Source: Eledone cirrhosa (taxonomy: Eukaryota). From it: a stretch of DNA of 64,000 bases. Shown here one piece after another: positions 1,160 through 62,900 of this stretch. The position numbers and the translations under genes were made by a program. Positions within the stretch are counted from its first letter, which is position 1; each line of letters opens with the position of its first letter. Under the pieces are notes generated by a model. The model ran no database searches. It saw only the letters and a list, made by a program, of their open reading frames with translations, and was not told the DNA's origin. The stretch is taken from contig OZ024743.1 of the NCBI GenBank assembly GCA_964016885.1, forward strand, positions 344,844,001-344,908,000, in the 5' to 3' direction.

Positions 1160-4648
<3,489 letters not shown>

Positions 4649-4652
<4 letters not shown>

Positions 4653-6681
4653 TATAGACATAGAATATTCGAAAATATTCTGTATGTTTATAATAAACAT
4701 TTTGAAGACCTAATCGCTATAGAATAGAATACGTCACGTATTACAATTAGATTCTCGATAAAAGCAAGGGAAGTAAATCTACGCGTTTCATTCTTATTAG
4801 AAATCGTCAGGACTACATATCCAGTGCTTTCATCGAGAATGACACAGCTAGAGACTTATAGAATACTTAGCTGTGTACAGGAACTGGTTTGAAAGAGCGG
4901 TTGCCGGTCCGGCAGAAATTAGAAATTGGAATAAATGCTCTGAAATAGCGATATATATGTGAATATAGACATAGAATATTCGAAAATATTCTGTATGTTT
5001 ATAATAAACATTTTGAAGACCTAATCGCTATAGAATAGAATACGTCACGTATTACAATTAGATTCTCGATAAAAGCAAGGGAAGTAAATCTACGCGTTTC
5101 ATTCTTATTAGAAATCGTCAGGACTACATATCCAGTGCTTTCATCGAGAATGACACAGCTAGAGACTTATAGAATACTTAGCTGTGTACAGGAACTGGTT
5201 TGAAAGAGCGGTTGCCGGTCCGGCAGAAATTAGAAATTGGAATAAATGCTCTGAAATAGCGATATATATGTGAATATAGACATAGAATATTCGAAAATAT
5301 TCTGTATGTTTATAATAAACATTTTGAAGACCTAATCGCTATAGAATAGAATACGTCACGTATTACAATTAGATTCTCGATAAAAGCAAGGGAAGTAAAT
5401 CTACGCGTTTCATTCTTATTAGAAATCGTCAGGACTACATATCCAGTGCTTTCATCGAGAATGACACAGCTAGAGACTTATAGAATACTTAGCTGTGTAC
5501 AGGAACTGGTTTGAAAGAGCGGTTGCCGGTCCGGCAGAAATTAGAAATTGGAATAAATGCTCTGAAATAGCGATATATATGTGAATATAGACATAGAATA
5601 TTCGAAAATATTCTGTATGTTTATAATAAACATTTTGAAGACCTAATCGCTATAGAATAGAATACGTCACGTATTACAATTAGATTCTCGATAAAAGCAA
5701 GGGAAGTAAATCTACGCGTTTCATTCTTATTAGAAATCGTCAGGACTACATATCCAGTGCTTTCATCGAGAATGACACAGCTAGAGACTTATAGAATACT
5801 TAGCTGTGTACAGGAACTGGTTTGAAAGAGCGGTTGCCGGTCCGGCAGAAATTAGAAATTGGAATAAATGCTCTGAAATAGCGATATATATGTGAATATA
5901 GACATAGAATATTCGAAAATATTCTGTATGTTTATAATAAACATTTTGAAGACCTAATCGCTATAGAATAGAATACGTCACGTATTACAATTAGATTCTC
6001 GATAAAAGCAAGGGAAGTAAATCTACGCGTTTCATTCTTATTAGAAATCGTCAGGACTACATATCCAGTGCTTTCATCGAGAATGACACAGCTAGAGACT
6101 TATAGAATACTTAGCTGTGTACAGGAACTGGTTTGAAAGAGCGGTTGCCGGTCCGGCAGAAATTAGAAATTGGAATAAATGCTCTGAAATAGCGATATAT
6201 ATGTGAATATAGACATAGAATATTCGAAAATATTCTGTATGTTTATAATAAACATTTTGAAGACCTAATCGCTATAGAATAGAATACGTCACGTATTACA
6301 ATTAGATTCTCGATAAAAGCAAGGGAAGTAAATCTACGCGTTTCATTCTTATTAGAAATCGTCAGGACTACATATCCAGTGCTTTCATCGAGAATGACAC
6401 AGCTAGAGACTTATAGAATACTTAGCTGTGTACAGGAACTGGTTTGAAAGAGCGGTTGCCGGTCCGGCAGAAATTAGAAATTGGAATAAATGCTCTGAAA
6501 TAGCGATATATATGTGAATATAGACATAGAATATTCGAAAATATTCTGTATGTTTATAATAAACATTTTGAAGACCTAATCGCTATAGAATAGAATACGT
6601 CACGTATTACAATTAGATTCTCGATAAAAGCAAGGGAAGTAAATCTACGCGTTTCATTCTTATTAGAAATCGTCAGGACTA
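4649..6681 (-). repeat. Tandem array of a 311-bp hammerhead-containing unit (~6.5 copies; retrozyme / Penelope pLTR-like)
   Basis: Unit motif AATATAGACA recurs at 4651, 4962, 5273, 5584, 5895, 6206, 6517; copies look identical; each has a minus-strand hammerhead. Confidence 0.92.
4773..4816 (-). ncRNA. Minimal type I hammerhead ribozyme (first array copy; repeats every 311 bp)
   Basis: Minus strand GUAGUC-CUGACGA-UUUCU AAUA AGAAU-GAAA-CGCG-UA-GAUUUAC: intact core, stem II, palindromic stem III ACGCGU, GUA cleavage triplet, stem I GUAGUC/GAUUUAC. Confidence 0.88.
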
Positions 6682-6682
6682 T

Positions 6683-6884
6683 GTAGTCCTGACGATTTCT
6701 AATAAGAATGAAACGCGTAGATTTACTTCCCTTGCTTTTATCGAGAATCTAATTGTAATACGTGACGTATTCTATTCTATAGCGATTAGGTCTTCAAAAT
6801 GTTTATTATAAACATACAGAATATTTTCGAATATTCTATGTCTATATTCACATATATATCGCTATTTCAGAGCATTTATTCCAA
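6683..6884 (+). repeat. Inverted terminal arm of the 311-bp array, with plus-strand hammerhead at 6683-6726
   Basis: Reverse complement of ~6481-6681 with essentially no spacer (GGACTA-TG-TAGTCC); ends in (TA)n. Confidence 0.92.
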
Positions 6885-8033
6885 TATATATATATATATA
6901 TATACATAAATGTTTATACAGGAACTCAAATATAGTACATATATTGGTATTTAAGCATGCATGATATTTATATGTCAAGTGACGTTGCATAAGGTTTTAG
7001 CCGGCGGCAAGCTGGATTTGACATCTGCGTTCCAAATTTGGCTGAGGTTATTTGTTTCCATCCACTAATGGCATTAGGAATTGTATGAGCACCACAAAAT
7101 CTACTTCTTCCTCGCGCTATAAAAGAAAGTCTGATCACTTGCACATCTGAAGTTTTCATCGGTTTCTTTGGTTTTATTTTTTTCATTAGAATATTGACCG
7201 ATCCCTATTACTTTTTTCGCTGCGCTTTCTGAATTCTGAGTTCAAATCTTACAGGGGCCAACTTCACTTCTTATCATTTCGAGGTCTAGTAACAACCCAA
7301 TATTGGAGGCTGAGTCTTTCTCTATATCTGTTGCCTCCACCCCCTCCGCTCCTTCTTTTCTTGTTCTCATGAAGACATCGGCTGTTACCCATTAGGAATT
7401 ACAAGTTTATACATACATTCTAGTACATAACACTTGAAAACAAAACCAACTGATATGGTTCAATATTCGTATTAATTATCTATTTGTCCTTCAGTTTTTA
7501 TTAGTTTTAATCAGCAAGTAGTAGACCAAGCTGCTGTAACAAACACGGTTTAAGGGTATTCGATCTGGCACAATTGTTAGTCCGTTCGATATTCGTTCTG
7601 TCTCTCTTCGTTTTGAGCTCAAATCATGCAGCGAACCATTTTGCTTTTTTAATCTATAAGGTAATATAGACTTTTCGATAAAACATATTCTATCCCAGTA
7701 CCGGTGAGGCCCTTCCCCACTGTCAGATGCTAGATATTCCAGTGGATGAAAGGAGAAAGGGACGAGAGAGTATCAGTTTGCCGATATCTTAAAATATATA
7801 CATTTTTTCAATTCACTTTTAAAAATGATTAAAATCTATTGATCAAGGATTAAAAAAATCACGATTTCAGATGTATTCAAATTACTATCAATCTAAATGT
7901 ATGCATTACGTACCTACATATGTATGTATTTATGTATGTATGTACGTCGTACGTACGTATGTATGTATGTATGTATGTATGTATGTATGTATGTATGTAT
8001 GTATGTATGTATGTATGTATGTATGTATGTTAT

Positions 8034-8642
8034 GTCAGGTCACCAGTTGGTGCTACTGGTAACATGTATCCCAGTACAACCTGTCTCATGGTCGGGTCGT
8101 TGGCGACTAAACTGGCAACCCCACCAAGGTTTCTTGGTGAGGAAGGTGACTTTAGACATCCTGCAGGACTAAAAACAAAACCTGTCAAAGGGCAAAGGAG
8201 TTCTTAAGAGTCAATGGCCATCCAAAATCACCGGGAGAGATGACCCCTTAGCCTTTGTCAAGGCAGAATTCTAGGAGAAGGAAAACTCTGATATAACACC
8301 TGCAACCCTGATGGTATCCAATGATGTTGACTTGTTCTTCTTTTTGGTAAATATCATCTTGGTTAAGAGAGTGGGACTGGCTTTGTGCAGTGCCTTTGCT
8401 AACTATAAAAGCTTCACGGCACAGGCATTGCTTTATATCTGGAGATCTCTCTGCACTTGTTGTCACATGGTACCATGGGCCCAGCACTATGAGTCAATAA
8501 TTGTCACAAGTTTAGTGTTTGTAACAGAGTTTTCAAGTCGCTGGCTGGACTAAAAATTCACACTCGTTCAGCGCATCGGTAAGGGTTCTCCTACATGGAT
8601 ATGAAGTAGTGGCCGTACTCGAAAACGAGTTGGCAGCCACCA
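8034..8642 (+). mobile_element. ~610-bp putative non-autonomous retroelement, copy 1, in (TATG)n
   Basis: Near-identical copies at 8757 and 20092 with the same ends (GTCAGGTCACC... / ...GCAGCCACCATGTATG); TATG tail. Confidence 0.75.
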
Positions 8643-8756
8643 TGTATGTATGTATGTATGTATGTATGTATGTATGTATGTATGTATGTATGTATGTATG
8701 TATGTATGTATGTATGTATGTATGTATGTATGTATGTGTGTATGTATGTATTATAT

Positions 8757-9366
8757 GTCAGGTCACCAGTTGGTGCTACTGGTAACATGTATCCCAGTAT
8801 AACCTGTCTCATGGTCGGGTCGTTGGCGACTAAACTGGCAACCCCGCCAAGGTTTCTTGGTGAGGAGGGTGACTTTGGACATCCTGCAGGACTAAAAACA
8901 AAACCTGTCAAAAGGCAAAGGAGCTCTTAAGAGTCAATGGCCATCCAAAATCACCGGGAGAGATGAACCCTTAGCCTTTGTCAAGGCAGAATTCTAGGAG
9001 AAGGAATACTCTGATATAACACCTGCAACCCTGATGGTATCCAATGATGTTGACTTGTTCTTCTTTTTGGTAAATATCATCTTGGTTAAGAGAGTGGGAC
9101 TGGCTTTGTGCAGTGCCTTTGCTCACTATAAAAGCTTCACGGCACAGGCATAGCTTTATATCTGGAGATCTCTCTGCACTTGTCGTCACATGGTACCATG
9201 GGCCCAGCACTATGTGTCAGTAATTGTCACAAGTGTAGTGTTTGTACCAGAGTTTTTTTAAGTCGCTGGCTGGACTAAAAAGTCACACTCGTTCAGCGCA
9301 TCGATAGGGGTTCTCCTACATGGATATAAAGTAGTCACCGTACTCGAAAACGAGTTGGCAGCCTTG
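8757..9366 (+). mobile_element. ~610-bp putative non-autonomous retroelement, copy 2
   Basis: Direct repeat of 8034-8642 separated by (TATG)n. Confidence 0.75.
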
Positions 9367-9392
9367 CATGTATGTATGTATGTATGTATGTA

Positions 9393-9950
9393 TCCTGAAA
9401 AAACCTTTGAATGGTGAGCTTTGTAAAGGTAAGAAACCATCTAACAAACCAAAGAACCGATTCGAAGGTTGTGTAAAGGCCTTATTGAAAAAAATTGGTT
9501 TGATGGTGGCTGACTGGGAGAGAGAAGCTCTTGAAAGAGAAACTTGGCGTGGAACGGTGAATGATGGGGTCCATAATTTTAAGGACAGACCCATAGAGCA
9601 CGAGAAGATCAAACGGGGTGTGCGTAAGCAATGCCCTGGTGTATCTCTCGAAACGATCGGTGTCTCCATTAAATTGAAGTGCCCTAAGTGTGGACAAATT
9701 TGCTTGAGCTAATCTGGTCTCAGGAGCCACAGTGACAGTCATGTTCAAAGAGAACCAGTGAACTATAATCTCCACGGTATTGTGAAGGTTCACAGGCAAG
9801 CTGATGCAAGACCTCAGGTCAGAGAGATCCATAGTTGTCGATGTGCGAAAGAGTGCAATTGTCTAACAGGCTTGAAAGCCATATGCAAGCGTCGCACATG
9901 TGAATGTGACAAGCGATTGCAATACACTTAGCAGAGATTGCAGCCATCAT
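9393..9950 (+). mobile_element. RTE-clade LINE 3' fragment (5'-truncated, decayed)
   Basis: GELCKGKKPSNKPKNRFEGCVK...WEREALERETWR...CPKCGQICLS*SGLRSH resembles the RTE/BovB C-terminus with zinc fingers; ends GCAGCCATCATGTATG. Confidence 0.75.
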
Positions 9951-17452: not shown

Positions 17453-18080
17453 TTATATATCTATCTATATATTTATCTATCTCCCTCTCACCCACTCACT
17501 ATTAGTCAGTACTTACACTTTGCTATAGTATTTTGTGTCCGTTTTTCCGTATCATTCACTCCGCCATTTCTTTCGCGGACGTTCTGAAAAACTACAATTA
17601 CTTTCCATTTCTCTTAATTGACCAACACCTACTGACTGGCCGTACCCAAATATTTGACCATATATCAGGACATTGCCAACACTATTCGAACTATCCGCGA
17701 TAGCATTATTCATTGCAAGGTAAAATACGATGACCTCCTCTCTCATGAGATATCTATTATATCTGTGTATGAATGTATGAATGTATGTATGTATGTATGT
17801 ATGTATGTATGTATGTATGTATGTATGTATGTATGTATGTATGTATGTATGAATGTATGTATGTATGAATGTATGTATGAATGTATGTATGTATGTATGT
17901 ATGTATGAATGTATGTATGTATGAATAAATGTATGTATGTATGTATGTATGAATGTATGTATGTATGTATGTATGTATGAATGTATGTATGTATGTATGT
18001 ATGTATGTATGTATGTATGAATAAATGTATGTATGTATGAATAAATGTATGTATGTATGTATGTATGTATGTATGTATGT

Positions 18081-18830
18081 TATCTCTTTCTCTTAATTTC
18101 GAGTATATTTTTTTGACCGGCCACCTTCCTGGTAGCAAGGTTGTAAATAAAAAGAAATTGTCATCCCTTGAATCGCAAGAATGTTTTGCAAATTTTGAAG
18201 GTGCCAGCTATCGCAGCCATTTGCAGACTATGAATTAGGGGGCTGCGCTCTTTGTCCGCAAATCCAAGTTCAGTCATACTTTGGTCCAAGCGGGTTGGTA
18301 TATAACCCGTAGCACCAATAATGATGGGTATGAAGCTAAAGGTGTATCTTGGATACTGGATTTGTAAACTCCTCATCAATGGTCCGTAGATGTCCTCCTT
18401 CTCCTGTATTTTTCTGACAACGTTTACATCAAGTGGGCAGCTGATCTCCACAACAGAACACGTTTTCAATGTGTGGTCCCAAACTACAATATCAGGCCGG
18501 TTGTGCTTTAATTTGGTGGCAGTTTTTATTTTCAGGTTCCACCAGTATTCCTTGGTGCCATCATTCTCAATATATTCTTCCTCGTTTGTTGTTAATTTTG
18601 TTTTCCGAAGTGCGTTCCAGATGGTTCTAGCTATCCCATCGTGTCTCGTGGGGAAGTAGTAGCGAGATGACATTCTTTTGCAGCTGGCAACAATGTGGCT
18701 TACATCCTCGATCTTTGTTTTACATAGCCTACATTTATTGTCAGCTGCTGGCCCTCCTCTTTTGTGCAGCAGATATTTGGTAGGGAGTTCTTGTTCCTGT
18801 ATTGCATAGAGATATCCCTCAAGGGGTGAT
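18081..18830 (-). mobile_element. R4/Dong-like non-LTR retrotransposon 3' fragment (RLE domain), copy 1
   Basis: CRLC..HI..SC zinc finger, RHD, HNRPDIVV..VEISCP..K PD-(D/E)xK endonuclease motifs; embedded in (CATA)n. Confidence 0.85.
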
Positions 18831-19015
18831 GTATGTATGTATGTATGTATGTATGTATGTATGTATGTATGTATGTATGTATGTATGTATGTATGTATGA
18901 ATGTATGTATGTATGTATGAATGTATGTATGAATAAATGTATGTATGTATGTATGTATGTATGTATGTATGTATGTATGTATGTATGTATGTATGTATGT
19001 ATGTATGTATGTATG

Positions 19016-19972
19016 TTATCTCTTTCTATTAATTTCGAGTATATTTTTTTGACCGGCCACCTTCCTGGTGGCAAGGTTGTAAATGAAAAAAAATTGTCAT
19101 CCCTTGAATCGCAAGAATGTTTTGCAAATTTTGAAGGTGCCAGCTATCGCAGCCATTTGCAGACTATGAATTAGGGGGCTGCACTCTTTGTCCGCAAATC
19201 CAAGTTCAGTCATATTTTGGTCCAAGCGGGTTGGTATATAACCCGTAGCTCCAATAATGATGGGTATTAAGCTAAAGGTGTATCTTGAATACTGGATTTG
19301 TAAACTCCTCATCAATGGTCCGTAGATGTCCTCCTTCTCCTGTATTTTTCTGACAACGTTTACATCAAGTGGGCAGCTGATCTCCACAACAGAACACGTT
19401 TTCGATGTGTGGACCCAAACAACAATATCAGGCCGGTTGTGCTTTAATTTGGTGGCAGTTTTATTTTCAGGTTCCACCAGTATTCCTTAGTGCAATCTTT
19501 CTCAATATATTCTTCCTCGTTTGTTGTTAATTTTGTTTTCCGAAGTGCGTTCCAGATGGTTCTAGCTATCCCATCGTGTCTCATGGGGAGGTAGTAGCGA
19601 GATGACATTCTTTCGCAGCTGGCAACAATGTGGCTTACATCCTCGATCTTTGTTTTACATAGCCTACATTTATTGTCAGCTGCTGGCCCTCCTCTTTTGT
19701 GCAGCAGATATTTGGTAGGGAGTTCTTGTTCCTGTATTGCATAGAGATATCCCTCAAGGTGTGATGTCATAAACTTGTCGGAACTCCATGCTAGGCTTTT
19801 TGAGTGGTTTATCCCCTCTATGGTCTGTGTTTTACGCCTCGTATCCATGCACAACTTTTTCTGTAAATTGGTCAATTTTTTTTATCTTGTTTGAACATTG
19901 AATAGGATCTTCCGATTTCTCTGGGTGAGAGATTTATATCAGGCTTTATTCCATATCTCTCCTCCAGATCAG
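19016..19972 (-). mobile_element. R4/Dong-like non-LTR retrotransposon 3' fragment, copy 2
   Basis: Same family, same 3' end, longer 5' extent (EGYLYAIQEQELPT), frameshifted. Confidence 0.85.
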
Positions 19973-20091
19973 TATGTATGTATGAATGTATGTATGAATG
20001 TATGAATGTATGTATGTATGAATGTATGTGTAAATGTATGAATGTATGAATGTATGTATGTATGTGTGTATGTATGTATGTATGTATGTGT

Positions 20092-20700
20092 GTCAGGTCA
20101 CCAGTTGGTGCTACTGGTAACATGTATCCCAGTACAACCTGTCTCATGGTCGGGTCGTTGGCGACTAAACTGGCAACCCCACCAAGGTTTCTTGGTGAGG
20201 AGGGTGACTTTGGACATCCTGCAGGACTAAAAACAAAACCTGTCAAAGGGCAAAGGAGCTCTTAAGAGTCAATGGCCATCCAAAATCACCGGGAGAGATG
20301 ACCCCTTAGCCTTTGTCAAGGCAGAATTCTAGGAGAAGGAAAACTCTGATATAACACCTGCAACCCTGATGGTATCCAATGATGTTGACTTGTTCTTCTT
20401 TTTGGTAAATATCATCTTGGTTAAGAGAGTGGGACTGGCTTTGTGCAGTGCCTTTGCTCACTATAAAAGCTTCACGGCACAGGCATTGCTTTATATCTGG
20501 AGATCTCTCTGCACTTGTCGTCACATGTTACCATGGGCCCAGCACTATGTGTCAATAATTGTCACAAGTGTAGTGTTTGTACCAGAGTTTTCAAGTCGCT
20601 GGCTGGACTAAAAAGTCACACTCGTTCAGCATATCGGTAGGGGTTCTCCTACATGGATATAAAGTAGTGGCCGTACTCGAAAACGAGTTGGCAGCCACCA
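20092..20700 (+). mobile_element. ~610-bp putative non-autonomous retroelement, copy 3
   Basis: Homologous end-to-end with 8034-8642; in (TATG)n. Confidence 0.75.
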
Positions 20701-21592: not shown

Positions 21593-21787
21593 CTTAAACC
21601 ATTTTGTTTGTTTACTCTAGCGTCCCCTTTATTTACGTGTCCCAACGACTTTTTTTAGCCGTTGCTCGCACCAACCTGAGGTATATGGCCTTTAAAGCGA
21701 CGAAATGCCTACGACGGTTGGAAGGCCACTGATGAAGGACAACCTTTTTCATATGTAATCCATTTGCAACGCCGCAGCTCCATTATT

Positions 21788-21790
<3 letters not shown>
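21591..21790 (+). repeat. Structured non-coding repeat flanked by (TA)n; homologous to 51312-51520 (-)
   Basis: Shared GCACCRACSTGAGGTATATG...GAAAT..CTAYGAYSGTYGG....CACTGATGARGGAC. Confidence 0.65.
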
Positions 21791-21863
<73 letters not shown>

Positions 21864-21867
<4 letters not shown>

Positions 21868-24800
21868 AATATTGAACAAAACACAAGCCGAACGGCTAAA
21901 ACACACAATAACAGTTAATATGAAAAGAACAACATACACAAAAGTCAACGCATTCTACAGACAAAAACGCATCAACGGTAAGGAAATCCGAAATCTCATC
22001 ACAGCAAACGAGAGAGATGACTTCATGAGCGTCATCCGACGCGAAACGAAATACGCTCGAAACGAATCCTGTAGGCATTTCAAGAAGAAATTAGAATGGA
22101 TGAATAAGAAAAAACTACAAGAAAGGAAAATCGAATATTCTCAAAAATACCCAGATAACATCGACAATATCCGTATGACTGATGTAAAACTACCAATGAC
22201 CACACAGTAAATATCTATGGGAACACTTTAATCAGTGAACAAGAACAACAAATCCTAAGGTTACCACCAAAATTTGCCATCTACAAAAAGATTAACCCTA
22301 TGGAATGCAAAACGGGGCTGGAAAAGTGTTTCACAAAAATACGTTGGAATGCAAAGGTAAACAACAACAACAATAATAACGGTAGTAGTAATATAAACAA
22401 TAACTCTGGGTATAGAAATAACAGCCATAACCATAACAATGGCAGGAAAGTGAGAAATAGTGATAATGGCAATAATACTAGCGATAGACGGAACAACAAC
22501 AACCACAATAATAATAATAATAGAAACGTTAACCACAGACACAGCAACAGTGACCACAGTAGTAATAACAGTAACAATACGAACAACAACAACAATAACC
22601 ACAGTGGTAATAATGGAAATAGTACATGTAGCAACATCAACAAAAACAAGAAACATAATAATAGTAACAACCACAATGGTAGAAATAACAGTAACAACAA
22701 CAACAATAACGGTGAAGTAAACAACAATACATCTAGCAATCATAACAATAATAATAATGCTAATGATAGAAACAACAACAACCACCATGATAACAATAAC
22801 AGCCACCATGATAACAATAATAGCAACACACACAACTATGACGATAGAAATAACGACAACCCCTTAGAGAAACTATTTTTCAACCCAGCTGACAAAACAT
22901 ATAAGATGGGTAATATCTATCCTACGAGGTTACCCTTTAATAAAAGAGTTTGCATACCACAGCAAATAGATGACGAGACGGAGGCACAGTTCACCATAGC
23001 TAGAAATAAGATTAGACAAGTAGTAGACAGGTATACTATGAGACAGAGCAAACCAGAGGCCCAACAACTTGGCAGAAAACCTGTAGAAGGCTTGGTTAGC
23101 CTCAAGCAGCGCACAAGGGATGGTGAGGTAGTGTGTCTACCCACAGATAAGTCTGGTAGGATGTCAATAGATAGCATGCCGAACTACATCGAGGCTATGC
23201 AACCCCACATCACCAACACGAGCGAGGTTGCACAACAAACACACGATGGGAGAGAAGAAATCCTCAACGCTCACATGATGATGTGGACTGACATCCTAAA
23301 GCCAAGCAGACGCACTGCCAACAACTTCCAGGCGTCTAACAATGGCATACCACCCTTGTATGGGCTCCGCAAAGACCACAAGACAGTCGACGACCCGACA
23401 ACAGGACCACCAACAAGACCCGTATGCGGAGCTAATATAGCTAGCAACTACAGGATCTCCTACTTCCTCTCAATGGTTATACGCCCCATAATCAAGATGT
23501 CCCCAGATGTATGTGAAAGTACAGAGGACCTCCTCAGCAGAATCAGTGAGTGCAACAAAAACAGGAGCCTATCCAACTGCATAATAGGCAGCATGGATGT
23601 GGTGTCACTGTACCCATCCATTAACATTGATTTTGCTGTGAAAAAATGTGTGGAGATGATCATTGAGAGTGAGGTGGAGTTCTGCGACGTCGACACAGAC
23701 GAACTGGGCCTCCTACTTAGACTTACCTACGACACTGACTACCTAGACAGCCATGACCTTAGATGTTTCTGCCCTAGTAGACCTATAAGAGGTAGACCCC
23801 CCACCATAACCTCAATGGCTAAAAAGACTCCCATAGGAAGGTGGATTGGGTGGACCAAAGCTATACGGACCCCCAAAACACTGATCAGGTAAGAAAAATG
23901 GTCGCACATGCAATAGGGGCTAGTATCAAAACTACCTAAAGGGCCACATATTTAAGTTCAATGAGAAAATCTACACCCAAAATGAGGGAGCAGCCATCGG
24001 CGTCAGCATAGCTGGTGATGTTGCCAACCTTTTCATGGTATGGTGGGAAAGGAGACTTAAAGATCTCCTTAATGAAAGCTCCATAGACCTCATCATGTAC
24101 TCTCGTTATGTAGACGATATCAATATAGTTATTAGAACACCCCCACTAGAGAGCACTAACAGGTTTGATTTAGAACGTAGCACGATGGAAAGCATCCAGC
24201 AGATAGCTAATTCCATACACCAGAGTATAACTGTAACTATCGACTTCCCTTCCAAACACCCTAACAATAGACTACCAGTATTAGACACAGAACTCTGGAT
24301 TAACACTATAGACGAGAGAGCCCAAATTCTCCACTCACACTATGCTAAACCCATGGCCTCCAAATACCTGGTACTCAAAAACTCAGCAATGTCCGGTAGT
24401 GCTAAGTTTAATATTCTGATCGCAGATTTGGTACGAGTAATGAAGAATGTGTCCAGCATGTGCGACCCAAGAAATGGAAAGACACATCCAACACTTCATC
24501 AACCGCATGCAGTTCTCTGGCTACAACCAAAGAGACAGAGTCAGAGTATACGAAGGGGCCATGGAAAAGTATAAGACCCTCATAGAACTGGATATGAAAG
24601 GAATTTGCCCACTATACAGGAGCAAATCATGGAATAGCTTAGATAGGGCTAGACATAAGATAGGGAAGGCCACATCATGGTACGACAACCAGAGATATCA
24701 GAGTGTCATGTTTGTGGACGCCACCCCTGGAGGGAAATTAGCTAACCAGTGTAGAAAGGCCCTGAGAAAGACCCACTTAAAAATAAAGGTGGTAGAAAAG

Positions 24801-25786
24801 CCAGGAACCACCATAAAATCCCTGATCAGCAAAACCTACCCTTTTAAGAAAACCCACTGTACCAATAGGAAATGTATCATATGTAAGGTGAACCCCCGGA
24901 TAAACTGTAAAACTAGAAACGTAGCATAAGATGTACAGAGGGTACTTGCAGAAACATGACAACAACATACATAGGTGAGACAGCTCGTAGCATAGGTGAA
25001 AGGATAGACCAACACTGGGGGGAACTAAAAGGACGAAAAAACGGGTCAGTACTATACGAACATGCTAGACAACAACATGACGGTAACATAGACAACATAT
25101 AAATTAGAATAATATCTAAACATAGGAATGACCCAGCAGATAGGCAAATCAGAGAGGCCAGTGAAATAGAAATTAGAAGACCAAAGCTAAACAGAAAGAA
25201 TGAGTGGAACAACAACAACACCCAAACAAACAACACTGACCTAAGAGAAGTATAAATAAGTAAATAAAATAAAATAAAATAAGATAAATAAATACATACA
25301 CAAGCACAATAACAACAAGCACATAAATACACACTAGTCACCCAGCAGACACAACACTATACACACTAGTCACACAGCACACATAACACTATGCACACAC
25401 GCAAACGCATGCGCAAAGAAGACAAAATAAAATAATATAAACAAATAAGCAAATAAATAAATAAATATATAGACAGACTGAATAAAAAATGGCGTAGACA
25501 TACAACACAACAGGAGGAACAAAGAATATAACACCACTGACGATGTTGCAGATGTGCAACGAAAGATTTATGTAAATTATGTAAACTATATATATGTGTT
25601 TGTGTCTATATTGTATCTGTATTATTTTTGACCGTCGGTCAGTCAATGGCAACATTGAGGACCGAGTAAGTTAGATCGCAGATATATATATATAAAAGAC
25701 AGCGAGAAGCGAAAACCAACCAAACAGTGAGTGTGTTCTGTTATTAATTCTGGCAATATTACGCAAATATGACCCTCCCCAAGTAT

Positions 25787-25895: not shown

Positions 25896-28800
25896 CTTTT
25901 TTTTTTTAAATATATATATTTATTTGGTTCCTTTACCGGTTTCGCAGTTCTTCTGATTTTCAAAAGTATAATTGAGATGGAGGGTCTGTGGCTTTTCTCA
26001 CTTCTGATGTGAGAAAAACCACAGACCCTCCATCTCACGAAGGGGCCCACACCGGTTGTCCGGTGAGGAATACGTGGAGGTGCGGCAGCCTGAGCGCGTG
26101 TTTGTGCATCGTCAGCCACGGCATCCCCAGCCCTCCGCTTGAAGGGTGTTGGAAGCAGATGGATCTTCTCACCAAAGGAGCCCGTTCCTTCCAAAGGAAT
26201 TGGAAGAGTGCGCGCTCCATTTTGGCGAGGGTTTTGGTTGGACAAGGCACGACAGTCAAGCGGTAGTAGATCACGGACGCTATAAAAGTGTTCGCCATCT
26301 CCGCTCGACCTTGCAAGGATAGTTTGCACTCGGCCCACTTCTGGGTGAGCGCAAACACCTTGGCCGTCACCTCATTCCAGTTCTTCTCCACCTGGAGGTC
26401 CTGACCAAACCAGACCCCGAGCAGCTTTAACGGTCCTTCCGTCCAGCGTCTGACGACGCCATTAGAAGGCATCGGATTACCTCTCCACGTTCCGAGTTGC
26501 AAACCGACGGATTTGTCCCGGTTCAGCTTCGCTCCTGTGAACCTTTTGTATTCCTTCAGTAAGGTGCCGACCTCCCCGATTTGCGAGGTGCTCGACACCA
26601 TTACTGTCACGGCATTGGCATAAGCCGACGCCGCTTTTCGCAGTCCTGGTTCCAAAGGGATGCCCTGCAATAGCCCCAACTTCCGCAGTAGTAGCTCGAG
26701 AGTCAGTACGTACAGAAGGGAGGAGAGAGGGCATTCCTGTCGGATGGATCACGTGATATGGAATGGCTCCGAGAGGTAACCGTTCACCTTGACCCTTGAG
26801 CAGATGTTGCTGCTGTGCATTGCAACAATCCAGCCCCTGAACATGGGTCCGAAGCCTGCCGCCTCGAGCAGCGCATCCAGGTAACGATGGTCAACCCTAT
26901 CGAAAGCCTTAGACTGATCCAAGTTGATCAGGGCCCCACCGAAGCCGGGTTTACACCCTACCCTCTCTATGGTGTATCGCATGACGTAGAGGTTGTCGTG
27001 TATGGACCTGGTCGGGATTGCGCATGTCTGCGCTTCTCCCACCAGGTTTTCGACGACAAGCGCCAGCCTCTTTGCCAACACCTTGGCCAAAATCTGTAAC
27101 TCTGTGTTTAGCAGAGTTATAGGCCGGAAGTTGCCTATGTCATCCCCCTTATTGTCGTCCTTCCTGACTAACGCGACTATGCCCTTGGTCACAGAAATGG
27201 GAATTCTCCCGTTCTGCTGCCAGTTGCAGTAGACCGCTTCCAGGAGACCGGAGAACAAGTCCGGCATTGCTACGTAAGATTCGCAGGGTAGACCGTCGAG
27301 ACCTGGAGATTTGCGTTTGCCGCATTGGCTCAGCGTGTCCCCTATCTCAGCGGCCGAAATCAGCCTTTCGCAGACTTCGCCTCGCTGTCCGAGAGTCGCG
27401 GCAGGCCGTCGAGGTATGGACCGAAATCCATAGCCCCTCCCGTCGCGCCACCCTGCCCGAACAGTTGAGCAAAGTGCCACTGAAAGGCCGCGCACATCTG
27501 CTTCGCCTCACGTATCATGCGTCCGTCTTTGTCCTTCAAAGACCGAAACGTGGACTTGTTGCCACTTTTCGCCTCCGTGCCTCGGGCCCAGCTAACAGCT
27601 TTGGCTCCCTCGTTTCCCAGAGCACCTATTTTGCTCCTGACAACGCATCCTTCGTGCTTTGCGTCGAAGAACTGGTCCAAGGCCTTTCTCGTCGCTAGCA
27701 CGCTGGCTACGTTGCCACTCCTAAGTGCCTCTTCTACTTTATCTAATAGTTCCTTTTCGGTCTTATTTCTATCTAACACTAATTCTTTATTAAAACCTAT
27801 CGAGTCTAATCAAACTGCCCTCTTGAGAGAGTACCACCATCAGTTGTTGACGATGGCCCCCGTCAAGTGCTGCTTAACTAAAGTGCTAATCCGTCTACTG
27901 AAGGCTTTGCATGTCGGTAACGACAAGTTCAGCTTCCAGTAGCCGGGTCCCTGTCTATGGGTTCTGTCAATGTTGACTAAGCAATTCACTAGTTTGTGAT
28001 CTGAATTGGCAACCATGAACATTTGTGGACAGTTTAACATGTCCCTATCACTAACTCTAACTAGAAACCTATCTAGGTACGATCTAGATGTTCCGCTGTG
28101 GTTGGCCCACGTCCACAGTGCCACAGTCGGAAAATCTAGTCGATATCTATCGACCAGTTGAAATCGGCCGATTAACTGTTTGAGGCTGTTACACCCCCCT
28201 CTATCGGGACATGCTCCCACATAGTCTCAACGTGCATCTAGATTCCATTCCAGTCCCCCACTAACAGCAAGGAGTGAGATGTTCTCAGAAAAGTTTCTAG
28301 ACGTTTGAAGAAGTCTGGCCGCGGTGTCTTGGATAGGGCATATGCGGCCACCAGCCTGAAGGCTCCACCTTCACTACCATCAACGTCGAGGACTACCAGT
28401 CGACCCTCCGGGTCCAGATGTACCGTCTGTGTTACGAGGTCCAGGTGTTTCCGCAACAAAACGGCAAACCCGCCCCCACCCCTCGGCTGACAGAGAGATG
28501 CGTAGATCTCAAAGTCGTCGAAGATGGGTTCCAGATGTCGTTCGCTGTGGATCCTGGACTCGCAAATGGCTACTACATCCATACTGTGCGACCTGAGGTC
28601 GTTTAAGTGTTTGCACTGTTTCCAGGACATCCCCAGACCGCGTACATTCACACATCCAACTCTTATATTGGTCATGTTGGTGCTGAAAAGTTAAAAGAAG
28701 AGGAAAAGAAATCACTCACCTCTTCGTCTCCTGGGGACCAGGCTGCACGATTTCCATGGGGTGTTGGAGGGGTGTCTGGTGAGATGGGGGTGTTTGGGGT

Positions 28801-30330
28801 GGGGATGTATGGGGTGGGGGTGGGTAAACATTTTGACAGGACTCGATTCTAGGGTTTGACGCTGGGGTTACCTACGTCGTTAGGAAATTTTCCTTTTAAC
28901 TGTTTATGGAGATCCTAATCATTTTAAGATTTGGATTTAAATTTTATTGTTAGTATTTATTGTTAGTATTTATGTAGGTGTAACATTTTTGTTGTGTTGT
29001 GTTGCTTTTTGTCTGTGGTTCTTGTGTGTGTTTACGTTTTGTAGTAGGTGTTTTGTTTTCAGGAGGGGGTGTTTTTGTTTGTGCTGTTTGCGTCGCTTGT
29101 GTTGGTGTTTGTGTGTTTGTTGAATTTTTGTTTGTGTTATGTCTTTGCTTTTTTCTTTTTACTGGTCGGAAAGGCTCTCCCTCATCGTCACTAGATGACG
29201 TTGATGAGGCCTCATCCGTGGTGGGGAGGGGTACATTTTGGGGAGCTGTTATGTGTGTGGGTATTTCTGGAGTTTTTTTAGGTGGGGAGGGGTTGGGTGG
29301 GAATGTGTTTGTCGTTTGTTTTGTTGTCACTATTTGTTTATGTTGTTGTTGTTGTGGTGGTGGTGATTGTTGTGCTGGTGTTGCAGGTGTTGGCAGTAGT
29401 GCCTTTTTTGGGCTAGTTAGCCGAGGACAGGAAGCTCTCACGCGACCCCTGCTTAAGCAGTGGTAACATGAGGGCCGCCTACGCTCGACCAAAATGTTTA
29501 TGTATATAAGCCCATCCAGCAGCACACGTTCCGGGATCCTAGCTATTCGTTCTGGTGTCATCTGAACCAGAATTTCCAGGCTAGTTCCGCTGAAAAGGTC
29601 GCCGGAGGACTTACCTACCGATATTATTGAGTCTTTTGGGAGGTTTAAACATTCACATAGTACCCACCAAATATCAACATTTGGTGTGATACTTTGGATT
29701 TATATTTTCTGTGTTCTTTTCCCCATGTAAGTGGGGAAAAAGGTGAACAGCGGTGACACAGTTGGTGACACAGAATTATGTGCTGTCAATTGGTCTTTCA
29801 TCAGAATGGATAAACTCCCGTAGAAAGCAATGTCTTTTACAGCATCTTTTAAAACCAACTCAATTTCACCTTGTGAAAGTTGAGTTGGTTTTCATGTTTT
29901 GTTTGAGACTGTCCTGAAAACCACAGTTTTCAAGGCAGTTTCTCTTTGCAAATCTGGGGGAGAGTTTATGGAGAATGATCCGTTCTCCCCAAAAGTTACG
30001 TACTGTCTGGCGTTATTCAAAAGCTGATTAGCATTTGAAATATCCACCGGAGTGTAGCTTACCATTTTCTTTACGGTTTGCGCAAATGATATTTTATCGT
30101 TTACATCCTTGTTGCAGTTATTGGTCTTGTTTTTGTTGTTATTGTTCTTGTTGGTGTTGTTTTCGTTCATAGTATTGTTGTTGTTGTTGTTGTTGCTGGT
30201 GCCGCTGGTTGTGTTGTTTTTGTTCATTGTTTCACACTTTTTGGTTTTGGTTTGTTGCCATGGCAACGTCAAGTTGTTGGTCAGCAGGTGAACAAAATCC
30301 TTCTTCTGGCTGACCTTTGTCTGAGACATC
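25896..30330 (-). mobile_element. Tx1/L1-like LINE, decayed, C-terminal part of ORF2 missing
   Basis: ORF1 remnants (29892-30329; 28950-29561 with degenerate knuckle CYHC...C); APE from 28675 (VNVRGL, LLLVGDWN, SYLDRFLV, SDHK); RT (KSPGLDG, FRPITLLN, LDQSKAFDRVDH, RQECPLS); AATAAA and poly(A) at ~25896-25925. Confidence 0.92.
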
Positions 30331-34132: not shown

Positions 34133-36688
34133 GTAATAGGAACGAGTAGGACCCCGACGGCCGAGCCCAAGCCGCTTCGACGGCCAACTCTGGACCAAAT
34201 GAAAACTCCCATCCTGGTACATGAACAGCCGAGCCTCTCAGGGGGTAATTCCATACATGGCAAAAGTGATTGTCACAAGGATCGGTCAAAAGTTTGTTGC
34301 TGAGACACACAACTCCATCATGGCAACTTGTGGAAGGAAGGGGCAGCTGAACCCGCCAGTAGAAGAAAGAGGGAGAGAGGGTGGAGGAAACCCATCCGCG
34401 CGCCGATAGCGCCAACTACAGCAGGACAGGAGGTCAAGGAAGTATACTAGGGAGGGGGAGGGCGAGGAAGTTGAAACAATAAGTAAAACAATATGGGGCA
34501 AATATATAGAAAAATACCGAGAATGTTAAAAAAAACAATTAAATATAAAAAAAAAACAATTTCTGGTTACTATCACCTAAGGACAGCTATCAAGTCTCTC
34601 ACTGGAACTGCTAGACTAAAGAAAGGTTTACTAGGTGGGACGGAATTATAATGAGACCTTTTTAAGAGGTAGTAGTAATCAACCGAGTATATCTTACGGT
34701 GACAGGTCAACAAGTCGGGAGCCAAAATACTAAAGAAACTACCACGTAAAAATAATTCAGAGTCCCGAGACTAATACGAAATAATCGTTTCTGCCCTAGG
34801 CACAAGGCCAGCAACTACACAGTGCAAAAAATAAACTAATACGAAATAATAATTCAGAATCCCGAAAAAGAATACTAATACTATCTCTAAGGATGCCGCT
34901 ACGATACAAACATTTTAGTGCAAACTACATAAATGCTCGTACGAAGTATATGAAAAATTTGATACGGAAAATTAATTCAGACCCCCCCCCCCCCCCACAC
35001 CAAAATAAAAAAATACTGATATACGAGAAATTGAAGCAAAGATACCACTAGAGAAATGTAGAAAGCACGGAAAAGGGGCAGCCATCGGATAAGAAGGCAA
35101 GTATCCGGGTCTATCACATCTGCTATAAAAAGTAGAGTCGGCCAATTCTATCTTAGAATAGGGGAAGGAGGTGCGGTACTGAGGCTACAAAGGACCGAGG
35201 GGCTGCCTCGGGTGGGCGAGAAAGTGAAAAGGACGACGACAAAGAAAGAGGACTGGGGTGGAAGGACTAGGGAGGGATGGGGGGAAGAAGGAAATATAGA
35301 GGAAGCGATAAAAAGATATAAAATAAATCTTACGTCTACCTTTGCAAGCTGGGGTTACCCATTACAAAGTCGGCAAGTGGGGTGTTACAACCCTTGTCTA
35401 CCCCCCCCCCCCCCCGGGTCATTATGGGGTTTGAGGGCGAGGTAAGTCCTACGCAATCTATGTTTGCATGCAGTTACCAGTTCATCTTTTTTGTTTAGGA
35501 GTTGGTCCGTCGAAAACAGCATTTGTAAAGTTTCCTCCGAGCATAAATTGCACCGACGGCGTCCTCCCGTGTAAGAGTTGGCTCTGGACAGTAAGCTCCA
35601 AGTGAGATCATAGGTAATATTGTTATCATTGAGGTCCCAGATGTGGCCCGAAAGTGTAGTGGCGTGACGCCGGGCCGGGTTTCGGAAGGTATGTCAGTGT
35701 TGGTATAGCCAGGTCTTGAAGTCACATGCGGTTAATCCTATATAAGCTTTGTTGGAGGTGTCCGTCCTCACGTTGCACTGGTAGATCACATTACGATCTC
35801 TACATCTGTTGTCGAGGGGGAAAATGGATCCATCAGGACAGTTGCACCTCCTGGTCGGCTCTCCACTGCTATTTAGGTTATTTCTTCCATAGGGGTTGAG
35901 TTTTTTGTTGTTAGAGGAGACGATGTTTTGTGCAAAGTTTGGTGTGGTGCTGTAGGAGAGTTTGATGGTATTTTTGTTAATTATGTTGTGGTAGCAGTGT
36001 TGTGGTGGGAAGTGTTTTTCAATGAGCCTAAAGAAGATTTTCCCGATAGGAGTTGTCACCTCGGCGTTGTGGGGAGGATTGAACCATGTTACATTGCGTG
36101 AGCGGCGGTGTCGCCTGCTGGTTCCGCTAATGGAAGCTGGACAGTAGGATATTTCATCCCGGAAACCACTCCGCTTGAGGGCCTGGTTGTAATAAGGCGC
36201 ATGTTCCTCGAATATCTGCTCATTGGCGGACAAACGAGATATGCGGAGGTAGATGTTTTTAACCAGGTTATTGGTGATGTTCCTAGGATGGTTTGACCGG
36301 CGGTGGATGTAGTGCAGGTTGTCGTTAGGTTTCCTGTATGGGTAGTACAGATCATTATCGAGGTCAAGGGTAACGTCCAGGAAGTTTACTCGGGTCAGGG
36401 ACGTTTGTAGGGTTATTTTAAATCCCCAGTCGCGGAAGAAGCTGATTAATTGTTTACGGACCCGATCTGTACTACTGGGGTCGTACCCTTTAAGGGTAAG
36501 GAGCCCATCATCACGGTACAATCCACCGCCGAATGCGGGAAACATATCGGTGAGTTTAGTTAGTAGGTACCATATATGGAATGACCCATGAGAAGCTCGG
36601 CTATTCATATACCAGGATAAAAAATTTCATTTAGTCCAGAATTAGCCGTCGAAACGGCTTGAGCTCAGCCGTCGGGGTCCTACTCGTT

Positions 36689-36691
<3 letters not shown>
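34133..36691 (-). mobile_element. Penelope-like element, 5'-truncated, with 3' pLTR (~34133-34260) and inverted 5' pLTR arm (~36570-36691)
   Basis: YRDDGL, VNFLDVTLDL, PYRKPND, TWFNPP, KLSYS, CNC..NVIYQC..YIGLT (GIY-YIG); after a frameshift CNLC..LNKKDELVTACKH ending ~35450; (TA)n flanks. Confidence 0.92.
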
Positions 36692-36782
<91 letters not shown>

Positions 36783-36843
36783 TGTGTGTGTGTGTGTGAT
36801 GTGTGTCGAAGGAATAAATGCATATACACATATGTGCATATGA

Positions 36844-36874
<31 letters not shown>

Positions 36875-36877
<3 letters not shown>

Positions 36878-37075
36878 CGAAGGAAATGTGGTAAGGAACC
36901 AGGTGGACCATAACGCACCAAAGTACTCAATACTTAGGGTAGTAGAGTGGGTAATAGGAACAAGTAAGACCCCGACGGCTGAGCTCAAGCCGTTTCGACG
37001 GCTAATTCTGGACATTAGCCGTCCAGAATTAGCCGTCGAAACGGCTTGAGCTCAGCCGTCGGGGTCTTACTTGTT

Positions 37076-37080
<5 letters not shown>
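36875..37080 (-). mobile_element. Short inverted-pair pLTR insertion (same family as 36570-36691)
   Basis: Long minus arm with tail ~36875-37012; short plus arm ~37021-37080 ending TTCCTAT + (TA)n. Confidence 0.85.
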
Positions 37081-37113
<33 letters not shown>

Positions 37114-37218
37114 TAAACATATTAACATATATACATATGAATATTTATATATATATTCACACACACACAATATATTTATATATATATGTATATATAATTT
37201 TCCTCATGTATTCCTCAC

Positions 37219-37263
<45 letters not shown>

Positions 37264-37264
37264 C

Positions 37265-37325
<61 letters not shown>

Positions 37326-37338
37326 GTAAATATATATG

Positions 37339-37371
<33 letters not shown>

Positions 37372-37400
37372 GTATATGTATATGTATATATATATATATG

Positions 37401-37461
<61 letters not shown>

Positions 37462-37466
<5 letters not shown>

Positions 37467-37653
37467 AACAAATAAGACCCCGACGGCTGAGCTCAAGCCG
37501 TTTCGACGGCTAATTCTGTACAGAATTAGCCGTCGAAACGGCTTGAGCTCAGCCGTCGGGGTCTTATTTGTTCCTATTACCCACTCTACTACCCTAAGTA
37601 TTGAGTACTTTGGTGCGTTATGGTCCACTTGGTTCCTTACCACATTTCCTTCG

Positions 37654-37656
<3 letters not shown>
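37462..37656 (+). mobile_element. Short inverted-pair pLTR insertion, mirror orientation of 36875-37080
   Basis: Short minus arm ~37462-37518, centre CTGTACAG, long plus arm with tail to 37656. Confidence 0.85.
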
Positions 37657-37707
<51 letters not shown>

Positions 37708-37724
37708 GTATATATATGTATATC

Positions 37725-37838
<114 letters not shown>

Positions 37839-38499
37839 TATATGTTTGTGTATATATTGGTTGTGTATGTGTGTATGTTTTCATACACATTGACTGTCGA
37901 ATTTTACGTTTTTCAGCCAATATTTTTGCCGTTTTTCTTACTATGCAATGTCTTATATTCTTTTCCTTCTTGTCCTGTATCAAACACAAACTTCACCATT
38001 CAGCTCGTCAGGTTAAAGGTTAACAACTGAATATGGCAGCTAATTACCTGTACACAGTATCATAATAGGTTTTGTACATGAAGAGCAACTCGCCAATTCC
38101 CTGCCTGACTTCACATCCAAAAATATTAATACGTCAGGTCATCATTAACCAGAGGTCATTCATATCACACAGCATAACTTCCTTCCTATTTTACCTTTTT
38201 TTTCTGTCTGTCTGTCCCTCTTTCTGTTTTACATTCTTTCTGTCTAACTATCTTTCTCTCTGTTTATCTTTCTTTCTTCCTTTCATTCATGATTTTTTTT
38301 CTTTCTCCATTTTTTTGTTTCATTTATATATATTTATTTTTATATTCATTTATTTGTTTATGTATTTATCTATCTATCTATTTTCTCTTTCAATCAAATA
38401 CAACCAAATGTCTGTAATTGTCCAATCAGGGATTTATAATGAAATGAACCTAAAATGATAACGTCCATTTTCCTTTACTCATGCCAACACACGCTCAAG

Positions 38500-62715: not shown

Positions 62716-62756
<41 letters not shown>

Positions 62757-62796
62757 ATTAAAATACTGGCCGATAATACTTCTTGTTGTTTTAATT

Positions 62797-62834
62797 GCCC
62801 TGATGAGTCCTTAATAGGACGAAACATTATTGGC
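62797..62834 (+). ncRNA. Minimal hammerhead motif (stem III imperfect) in a short TA-flanked insert (~62753-62880)
   Basis: GCC-CUGAUGA-GUCC UUAAUA GGAC-GAAA-CAUUA-UU-GGC, then AATAAA. Confidence 0.7.
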
Positions 62835-62900
62835 TAATAAAGACTTTTGATGTATTGAAGGCTTCTTTGTTTTACTTTCATATATATATGTATATATATA

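Follow-up and report, generated by a model that had tools for sequence, protein, structure and literature searches.

Head-to-head hammerhead arrays in Eledone cirrhosa: a young retrozyme family probably carried by Penelope-like elements

A 64,000-nucleotide stretch of the Eledone cirrhosa genome (assembly GCA_964016885.1, contig OZ024743.1, forward-strand positions 344,844,001 to 344,908,000), here called the window, contains near its left end a tandem array of short non-coding units, each carrying a hammerhead ribozyme, which is closed by an inverted arm. We propose that the array belongs to a young, high-copy family of retrozymes without long terminal repeats (non-LTR retrozymes), probably moving as a non-autonomous passenger of Penelope-like elements (PLEs) by twin-primed rolling-circle copying. 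Given a unit of only ~310 nt and a family that is both polymorphic and very young, ~1,000 insertions record where copying started, where it stopped and which template haplotype was used.

The window copy was characterized at the level of single bases. Its array repeats with a period of 311 bp over 2,033 bp (34% GC) and overlaps the inverted arm by 2 nt; neither the 6.54 units nor the 206 bp of the arm contain a mismatch (Table 1). These values bear out a preliminary description of the window, which had reported some 6.5 identical hammerhead units in (TA)n and an inverted arm of about 200 bp. Seven hammerhead cores are found on the minus strand (C3 at 4810, 5121, 5432, 5743, 6054, 6365 and 6676) and a single one on the plus strand, at 6689, within the inverted arm. 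The copy is adjoined by (TA)n at both ends. Unit positions were numbered M1-M311, with M1 as the first nucleotide after the hammerhead cut. In this numbering the long arm has its 3' end at M131, a putative 'short' priming site, and the inverted arm at M166, a putative 'long' priming site. The inverted arm passes the position at which the left end stops and runs 35 nt beyond it, and the internal (AT)4 patch of the unit lies at that very position, as in each repeat. The earlier statement that the arm crosses a unit junction with a target-like TA run was thus correct. No open reading frame (ORF) of 120 or more amino acids (aa) occurs inside the window array, and a tRNA scan returned 0 matches. 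The monomer is predicted to adopt a branched fold more stable than that of shuffled sequences (z = -4.1 linear, -3.9 circular). Its length of 311 nt, as first described, applies to the window unit but not to most family members, which have 310 nt.

At least 398 matches to the unit were found in the host genome of 3.0 Gb, with 40 scored out of 197 candidates. The right-hand (long) end joined to (TA)n, searched as an exact pattern, retrieved 1,024 sites, and the left-hand (short) end 1,211 matches, some of them inside variant units; the reversed control gave 0 in both cases. Thus, the family comprises at least 1,024 young insertions in (TA)n, and ~1,000 insertions of 2-3 kb would amount to roughly 3 Mb. 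Sixty insertions were mapped: the window copy, the 16 best matches to the window unit, the first 37 right-end sites listed on contig C1 and, for the remainder, four further C1 regions and neighbours in the same stretches. Six were left out of the layout counts (gap or stretch edge), leaving 54 complete insertions. All 60 consist of unit sequence and short fillers, with no ORF inside. An autonomous PLE was considered as an identity for the family and ruled out, as no ORF for a reverse transcriptase or a GIY-YIG endonuclease was present in any of them. For the term 'replicon', in the sense of RNA-to-RNA replication, no evidence was seen; the copies look like DNA retro-insertions.

The layout of the insertions is highly regular. 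An antisense arm followed by a sense arm, with a single inversion, was seen in 52 of 54 complete insertions, and in as many one outer end lay at M122-140 and the other at M166-173. Short ends fell at M131 in 25 and at M140 in 17 insertions, long ends at M166 in 50. Most C1 loci had been chosen by their long end; in the 17 insertions picked on other grounds, all 16 visible long ends lay at M166-169. At each outer end lies a 3' end of the ribozyme strand, which makes the junction of the arms head-to-head. Complete insertions span 0.23-7.5 kb and 0.7-24 units, with both arms longer than one unit in 39 of 51, and they end in (TA)n, the left end of L041 being an exception. Insertions of PLEs are described as tandems that include an inverted, 5'-truncated copy, bear a tail of 30-40 bp at one end and target microsatellites; their mechanism is called undefined (PMC8557442). 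In vitro, a PLE protein nicks and extends both target strands, and reverse transcription begins at two internal RNA sites whose spacing corresponds to the tail (PMC11167929). The retrozyme insertions display the same marks, that is, a head-to-head 5'-truncated inversion, a tail of this size at one end only and an AT-rich microsatellite target that hides any target-site duplication. The step from M131 to M166 amounts to 35 nt, within the range of PLE tails, and the tail length would equal the distance between two putative start sites of reverse transcription. At the short site the RNA continues with the (AT)4 patch, which could pair with the nicked (TA)n target, whereas the long site offers 2 nt of homology. 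The reported match between the TA run and the target therefore holds for one of the two ends.

The inversion junctions bear on the origin of the second arm. In L1 elements, from which the term twin priming is taken, both nicked target strands prime complementary DNA (cDNA) and the two products are joined by microhomology, leaving a 5' inversion. The preliminary description had instead invoked snap-back. On this route the cDNA would fold back and prime on itself, so that the second arm would be a copy of the first, with an endonuclease cutting at a fixed site to end it; PMC3846280 took the palindromes found where PLE copies invert as self-priming. The junction of the window copy, a near-perfect hairpin with an offset of 4 nt, would suit this route, which would also account for a haplotype shared by both arms. 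Across the family, however, mirror offsets of the inner ends are uniform: they are at most 10 nt in 4 of 52 insertions (3.5 expected) and at most 25 nt in 10 (8.5 expected), and both outer ends are fixed. A fold-back further demands that one arm be contained in the other. Arm lengths are individually compatible with it in 44 of 51 insertions if either arm may come first, but in 7 of 51 neither arm is contained, which is what independent arms predict (mean 5.1, 95% range 2-9). Moreover, either end type can bear the longer arm (14 vs 30), and at locus L070 one arm holds a haplotype missing from the other. By the containment test snap-back is largely refuted as a general route, and we regard it as quite improbable overall. 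The inversion points being random and seven insertions impossible by fold-back, the hairpin in the window is best seen as a coincidence; the near-spacer-free geometry holds for this copy and fails as a rule of the family. Most likely, both nicked target strands act as primers. Microhomology of 2 nt or more was present at 27 of 42 blunt or overlapping junctions, compared to 18% at random (p = 5e-11). Junctions mostly show 0-5 nt of microhomology, and filler was present in 10 of 52. A 54-nt filler (L084:2030-2083) corresponding to the end of a PLE family with a 784-aa ORF was examined as evidence for a partner and rejected, since a flank copy ~0.85 kb away is 100% identical and points to local templated insertion. 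Two loci have unusual junctions: in L047 the inversion junction is duplicated (antisense-sense-antisense-sense), and in L032 a 74-nt duplication precedes it.

The nature of the template was addressed using 53 insertions with whole units. In total, 376 of 424 units carried the majority haplotype of their own array, and 23 distinct array-wide variants were recognized. The two arms agreed in haplotype in 31 of 33 insertions, and in 23 of 24 among arrays not selected for identity to the window unit, whereas random array pairs agree with a probability of 0.068 (18 haplotypes in 33 arrays, mean difference 3.9 variants). One of the two disagreements is a private variant in a lone unit; in the other (L070) the haplotype switches after four units inside one arm, by a template switch between two RNA molecules or by conversion. 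Inner ends are distributed uniformly around the unit (Kolmogorov-Smirnov p = 0.72), and a distance of 5 nt or less from the cut was found for 3 of 104, with 3.3 expected. This absence of enrichment indicates that the enzyme sees no RNA end there. Many array-wide haplotypes imply a single-unit bottleneck, as given by a monomer circle and not by a linear multimer. The pattern appears to be the genomic footprint of the circle-copying model put forward in PMC7229834 and PMC7761336, and rolling-circle reverse transcription, already suggested in the preliminary description, is supported by both the haplotypes and the indifference of the inner ends to the cleavage site.

The same twin priming by a PLE could act on a long, uncleaved multimeric transcript of a homogeneous array, with the hammerhead having another role or none. 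For an anole PLE, uncleaved RNA was indeed the main template in vitro (PMC11167929); autonomous PLEs of the present genome also form tandems, of 3.5-4.1-kb units, and the source arrays are internally homogeneous. Such a template would nevertheless require the single-unit bottleneck to be repeated to yield 23 array-wide variants and 18 haplotypes in 33 arrays. Arms also reach at least 18 units despite the random truncation of every round, and the ribozyme pairs covary (see below). We consider this explanation unlikely. Still less credit can be given to satellite-like amplification at the DNA level, in which solo PLE ends, suggested as a source in bioRxiv 10.64898/2026.07.22.740005, would expand by unequal crossing-over and concerted evolution, with gene conversion keeping the arrays homogeneous. 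Two arrays do look as it would predict. In L082, where one arm exceeds 18 units, the same two-base variant recurs in 3 units scattered along that arm, and an array of an older subfamily (L138, C1:268926506-268929610) has a higher-order pattern of 3-4 units. The latter seems to be a retrozyme array turning into satellite-like DNA, indicating that DNA-level amplification occurs later. The insertions are, however, dispersed, their ends are fixed, each has one inversion at a random point and the haplotypes of inverted arms are identical; these are marks of insertion events and not of expansion afterwards, and amplification as the origin of the family is highly improbable.

The hammerhead has the core C3-U4-G5-A6-N7-G8-A9 together with GAAA and a helix III that is palindromic; its cut site is GUA, and cleavage is predicted after it, between 5091 and 5090 on the minus strand. 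The core is found on one polarity of the unit only. Rfam gave no match at the gathering score over the whole window, nor at E<=10 for one unit; hence, the identification is based on the core motif and on covariation. Helix III consists of 1 pair and a palindromic tetraloop, helix II of 4 pairs and a U-U, and helix I is extended. The ribozyme is accordingly not 'minimal' in the sense used for PLEs; the label is right for helix III but not for helices I and II. For the helix III self-duplex -7.5 kcal/mol was computed, compatible with cleavage as a dimer, and in the young unit this helix is of the same type as in the axolotl hammerhead for which good cleavage requires a dimer (PMC7229834). By this analogy the ribozyme is probably of the newt type and dimer-acting, in line with its first classification as a non-LTR retrozyme hammerhead with a palindromic helix III.

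None of the 23 array-wide variants touches the 12 core bases, although 11 of them lie within the 53 nt of the ribozyme; these affect N7, loop II, helix I and the base of helix II, where U-U becomes A-U. The older subfamily (40 scored of 144 candidates) is ~70% identical to the young one and mostly 315-322 nt long, and it shares the same two ends and the inverted arms. When 4 young units were aligned with 11 older ones, 96% of the cells at the named hammerhead pairs are paired, against 14-42% in slid controls. Both sides have changed in 8 of 11 pairs, and the 3-8 core pair is C-G in 6 units and U-A in 9. These patterns suggest that the ribozyme is under selection. The best-conserved part of the unit is M69-M200, around both start sites, where covarying hairpins lie inside an invariant 4-pair stem; from this conservation we infer a putative protein-binding signal.

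Candidates for the helper were found via fragments in the window. Two PLE families have intact ORFs (1,217 aa and 784 aa) and many identical copies, and both insert in (TA)n. Where inverted copies of the two families could be seen at both ends, one end was short and one long (5/5). Pfam and PDB sequence searches found no match for the candidate proteins, which we take to be PLE proteins because of a YxDD motif and a GIY-YIG-like end with CxxC motifs; the layout of their insertions supports this as well. The one score above shuffled sequences, that of L043, was considered as partner homology and rejected, as it was due to a TA run. In a survey of (TA)n-abutting ends in 677 kb many families were encountered, none of them resembling the unit's tail. 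The proposed link to Penelope elements is therefore sustained by the insertion layout and by two intact families that use (TA)n, and not by a partner match in sequence. Within the window itself, a broken copy of the very active 1,217-aa family lies at 21680-25700 (+), and fragments of the likewise very active 784-aa family, with a tandem period of 3,531 bp, lie at 35694-37900; loci L107-L111 and L112-L117 represent the two families elsewhere. The 1,217-aa family has a long asparagine-rich insert and a hammerhead-like motif in its pseudo-long terminal repeat (pLTR); in the 784-aa family a pattern search found no canonical hammerhead core, but a stem followed by GAAAC was noted immediately ahead of the short end. 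Flanking stretches contained no fewer than four additional PLE families, whose proteins share 35-53% identity with the one of 784 aa (L048:2295-5191, L080, L110, L130 and L043:3-329). This genome is very rich in PLEs.

Taken together, the following course of events would explain the insertions. Arrays would be transcribed, and hammerheads, probably as dimers, would cut out monomers of 310/311 nt to be ligated into circles, a step modelled on coral, mussel and axolotl retrozymes. A PLE protein, as is known in vitro for one PLE and assumed here, would nick both strands of (TA)n. Each nicked 3' end would prime inside the RNA, one at M131/M140 with the aid of the (AT) patch and the other at M166, ~35 nt downstream; the start positions are observed, priming from nicked ends would account for them. 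Each cDNA would make between 0.2 and more than 18 turns of the circle, passing the cleavage site, as the observed arm lengths and uniform stop positions suggest. The two cDNA 3' ends would then be joined, in keeping with the observed junctions mostly over 0-5 nt of microhomology and sometimes with templated filler, so that two concatemers stand head to head and one outer end carries a tail. The window copy would be one such event whose cDNAs stopped 4 nt apart by chance. In its fullest form, a dimeric PLE protein would nick both (TA)n strands and carry out two simultaneous rolling-circle reverse transcriptions on a hammerhead-made circle that does without the helper's terminal sequence, in a process still active; we see the chances of this version as evenly balanced.

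Several observations weigh against this scheme. The core-conservation test is weak inside the young family alone (p = 0.06), and the rows of the covariation alignment, being related as two subfamilies, represent few events. Besides favouring uncleaved RNA, the anole PLE was not impaired in its insertion by hammerhead mutants in vitro (PMC11167929), and 8 of 9 Xenopus retrozyme dimers did not cleave in vitro (Li et al. 2026). The tails of the candidate helpers, 43 nt in the 1,217-aa and ~83 nt in the 784-aa family, are unlike the 35 nt of the retrozyme, and the unit has no sequence match to the two intact PLE families or to four other PLE fragments. The switch in L070 implies that more than one RNA molecule can be used and that the arms need not share one, and a clonal pool of circles fits the haplotype data as well as a single circle does. 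Of the 54 complete insertions, one has two inversions and one a single arm without inversion. Finally, there was no RNA run among the public runs listed as containing the unit.

Tandem and fold-back structures are known as read artefacts, and the window junction is taken from the assembly. An assembly or chimeric-read artefact is nonetheless barely credible, since the inverted arm stops at M166, the site fixed for the family, and gives way to unique flanking sequence, the long end recurs at more than 1,000 loci, and single-unit variants are resolved inside arrays. In addition, loose ends in (TA)n occur at both of these unit positions in contigs of X1, a separate public run. The structure of the window copy is thereby confirmed as real.

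Table 1. Coordinates of the retrozyme copy and its target within the window
Feature	Position	Strand	Remark
Long arm, 6.54 identical 311-bp retrozyme units	4649..6681	-	Ribozyme (sense) strand is the minus strand
Inverted arm, 206 bp, M272 to M166	6680..6885	+	Head-to-head junction with 2-nt microhomology
35-nt PLE-type 'tail', M132-M166	6851..6885	+	At one outer end only; tail as in PMC8557442 and PMC11167929
Type I hammerhead of one unit	5081..5133	-	Core C3 at 5121; repeats every 311 bp
Predicted 311-nt monomer/circle	4780..5090	-	Between two cuts; predicted fold
Internal (AT)4 patch, M132-140	4951..4959	-	Just 3' of the putative short priming site
Left target (TA)n run	4560..4648	.	Lies in a longer, degenerate tract of TA
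Right target (AT)n run	6886..6903	.	Would mask any target-site duplication

Words of the unit (55-90% of those sampled) were present in 20 public runs under 18 organism labels. The depth of the unit summed to ~400,000 in X1, compared to a single contig at 5 in X17 and one at 34 without flanks in X7; in 1,938 million letters of X24, another organism F sample (~1/100 of the run), there were 0 unit reads. The occurrences in runs of other organisms fit trace carry-over of a high-copy repeat. Horizontal transfer, considered as an explanation, is unsupported rather than excluded, with 4 of 24 runs examined and trace depths outside X1. A metagenome scan with a 24-nt pattern gave 0 matches.

The window also holds an unrelated second hammerhead family (62752-62900, +, core at 62800) that ends in (TA)n. 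It has 1,135 candidates in the genome, the top matches being 96-98% identical, with some inverted pairs and a tandem of ~2-kb period on contig C297; no ORF was found beside 7 of its copies. Fragments of other non-LTR retrotransposons, some of them partial tandems ending in (ATGT)n, occupy 7100-9860, 17750-20260 and 26035-30330. By their motifs we take their ORF pieces to be reverse-transcriptase, AP-endonuclease and restriction-like endonuclease-like.

Twin priming as proposed here resembles that of L1 in that both nicked strands prime and the cDNAs are joined by microhomology. In L1 the first primer sits at the poly(A) end and the second at variable internal sites of a linear RNA, whereas the retrozyme insertions show two fixed sites with a spacing of 35 nt, and multimers in either arm. 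Small, highly self-paired RNAs (here by prediction) with a hammerhead are also a feature of viroid-like replicons and plant LTR retrozymes, from which the unit differs by a type I instead of a type III ribozyme, the lack of an LTR layout, a ribozyme seen on one polarity, where viroid-like replicons often have them on both, and the absence of any sign of RNA-to-RNA replication. Endonuclease-bearing PLEs likewise have tandems, an inverted 5'-truncated copy at the 5' end, a tail, microsatellite targets and two internal starts (PMC8557442, PMC3846280, PMC11167929). Unlike them, the unit has no ORF and is 11-13 times shorter, so that each arm records many turns of the template, and the data favour twin priming over the self-priming of PMC3846280.

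Metazoan non-LTR retrozymes have non-coding tandem units of ~300 bp with a GC content below 45% and one type I hammerhead per unit (PMC7229834; bioRxiv 10.64898/2026.07.22.740005). The present unit agrees with this in size (150-450 bp), GC content (<45-50%), lack of an ORF or LTR layout, a type I hammerhead in each unit and dispersed multicopy occurrence. Its helix III is that of axolotl HHR_Amex1 and the U-U at the base of helix II that of HHR_Amex2, and co-occurrence with PLEs is common to these retrozymes (PMC7229834). With every sequence-testable membership feature present, and with cleavage and circles assumed by analogy, the unit would represent a new non-LTR retrozyme family. PLEs are matches, by pLTR homology, for 21 of 57 Xenopus retrozyme families (Li et al. 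2026), whereas the unit has no pLTR homologue among the PLEs sampled here. In contrast to described retrozymes, nearly all insertions are head-to-head double concatemers in (TA)n whose two ends are fixed and which bear a tail of 35 nt. The word 'inverted' is absent from the available text of PMC7229834, and 'tail' and 'priming' from that of bioRxiv 10.64898/2026.07.22.740005. Tails, inverted arms or twin priming were not described for retrozymes in the literature searched, the scope of which lay outside supplements and subscription papers (e.g. figure S9 of PMC7229834). As far as that literature goes, including the available part of PMC8490949, the insertion anatomy, with two concatemeric arms, fixed ends of PLE type and evidence, on the scale of a population, for twin-primed rolling-circle copying, appears to be new.

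Copying of the circle by a borrowed reverse transcriptase had been proposed in PMC7229834, and the movement of retrozymes is described as unresolved both there and in bioRxiv 10.64898/2026.07.22.740005. The insertions analysed here link retrozymes with PLE chemistry through the marks that they bear, not through shared occurrence. They provide genomic evidence for rolling-circle copying and make twin priming separable from self-priming. For in vitro testing, the family offers a minimal RNA substrate and two intact candidate proteins. In assembly work, fold-back arrays in (TA)n should not be thrown out as chimeric reads. If the proposed mechanism is true, a single process would account for the tandems, the inversions and the tails seen in all PLE insertions, and would give their hammerheads a purpose.
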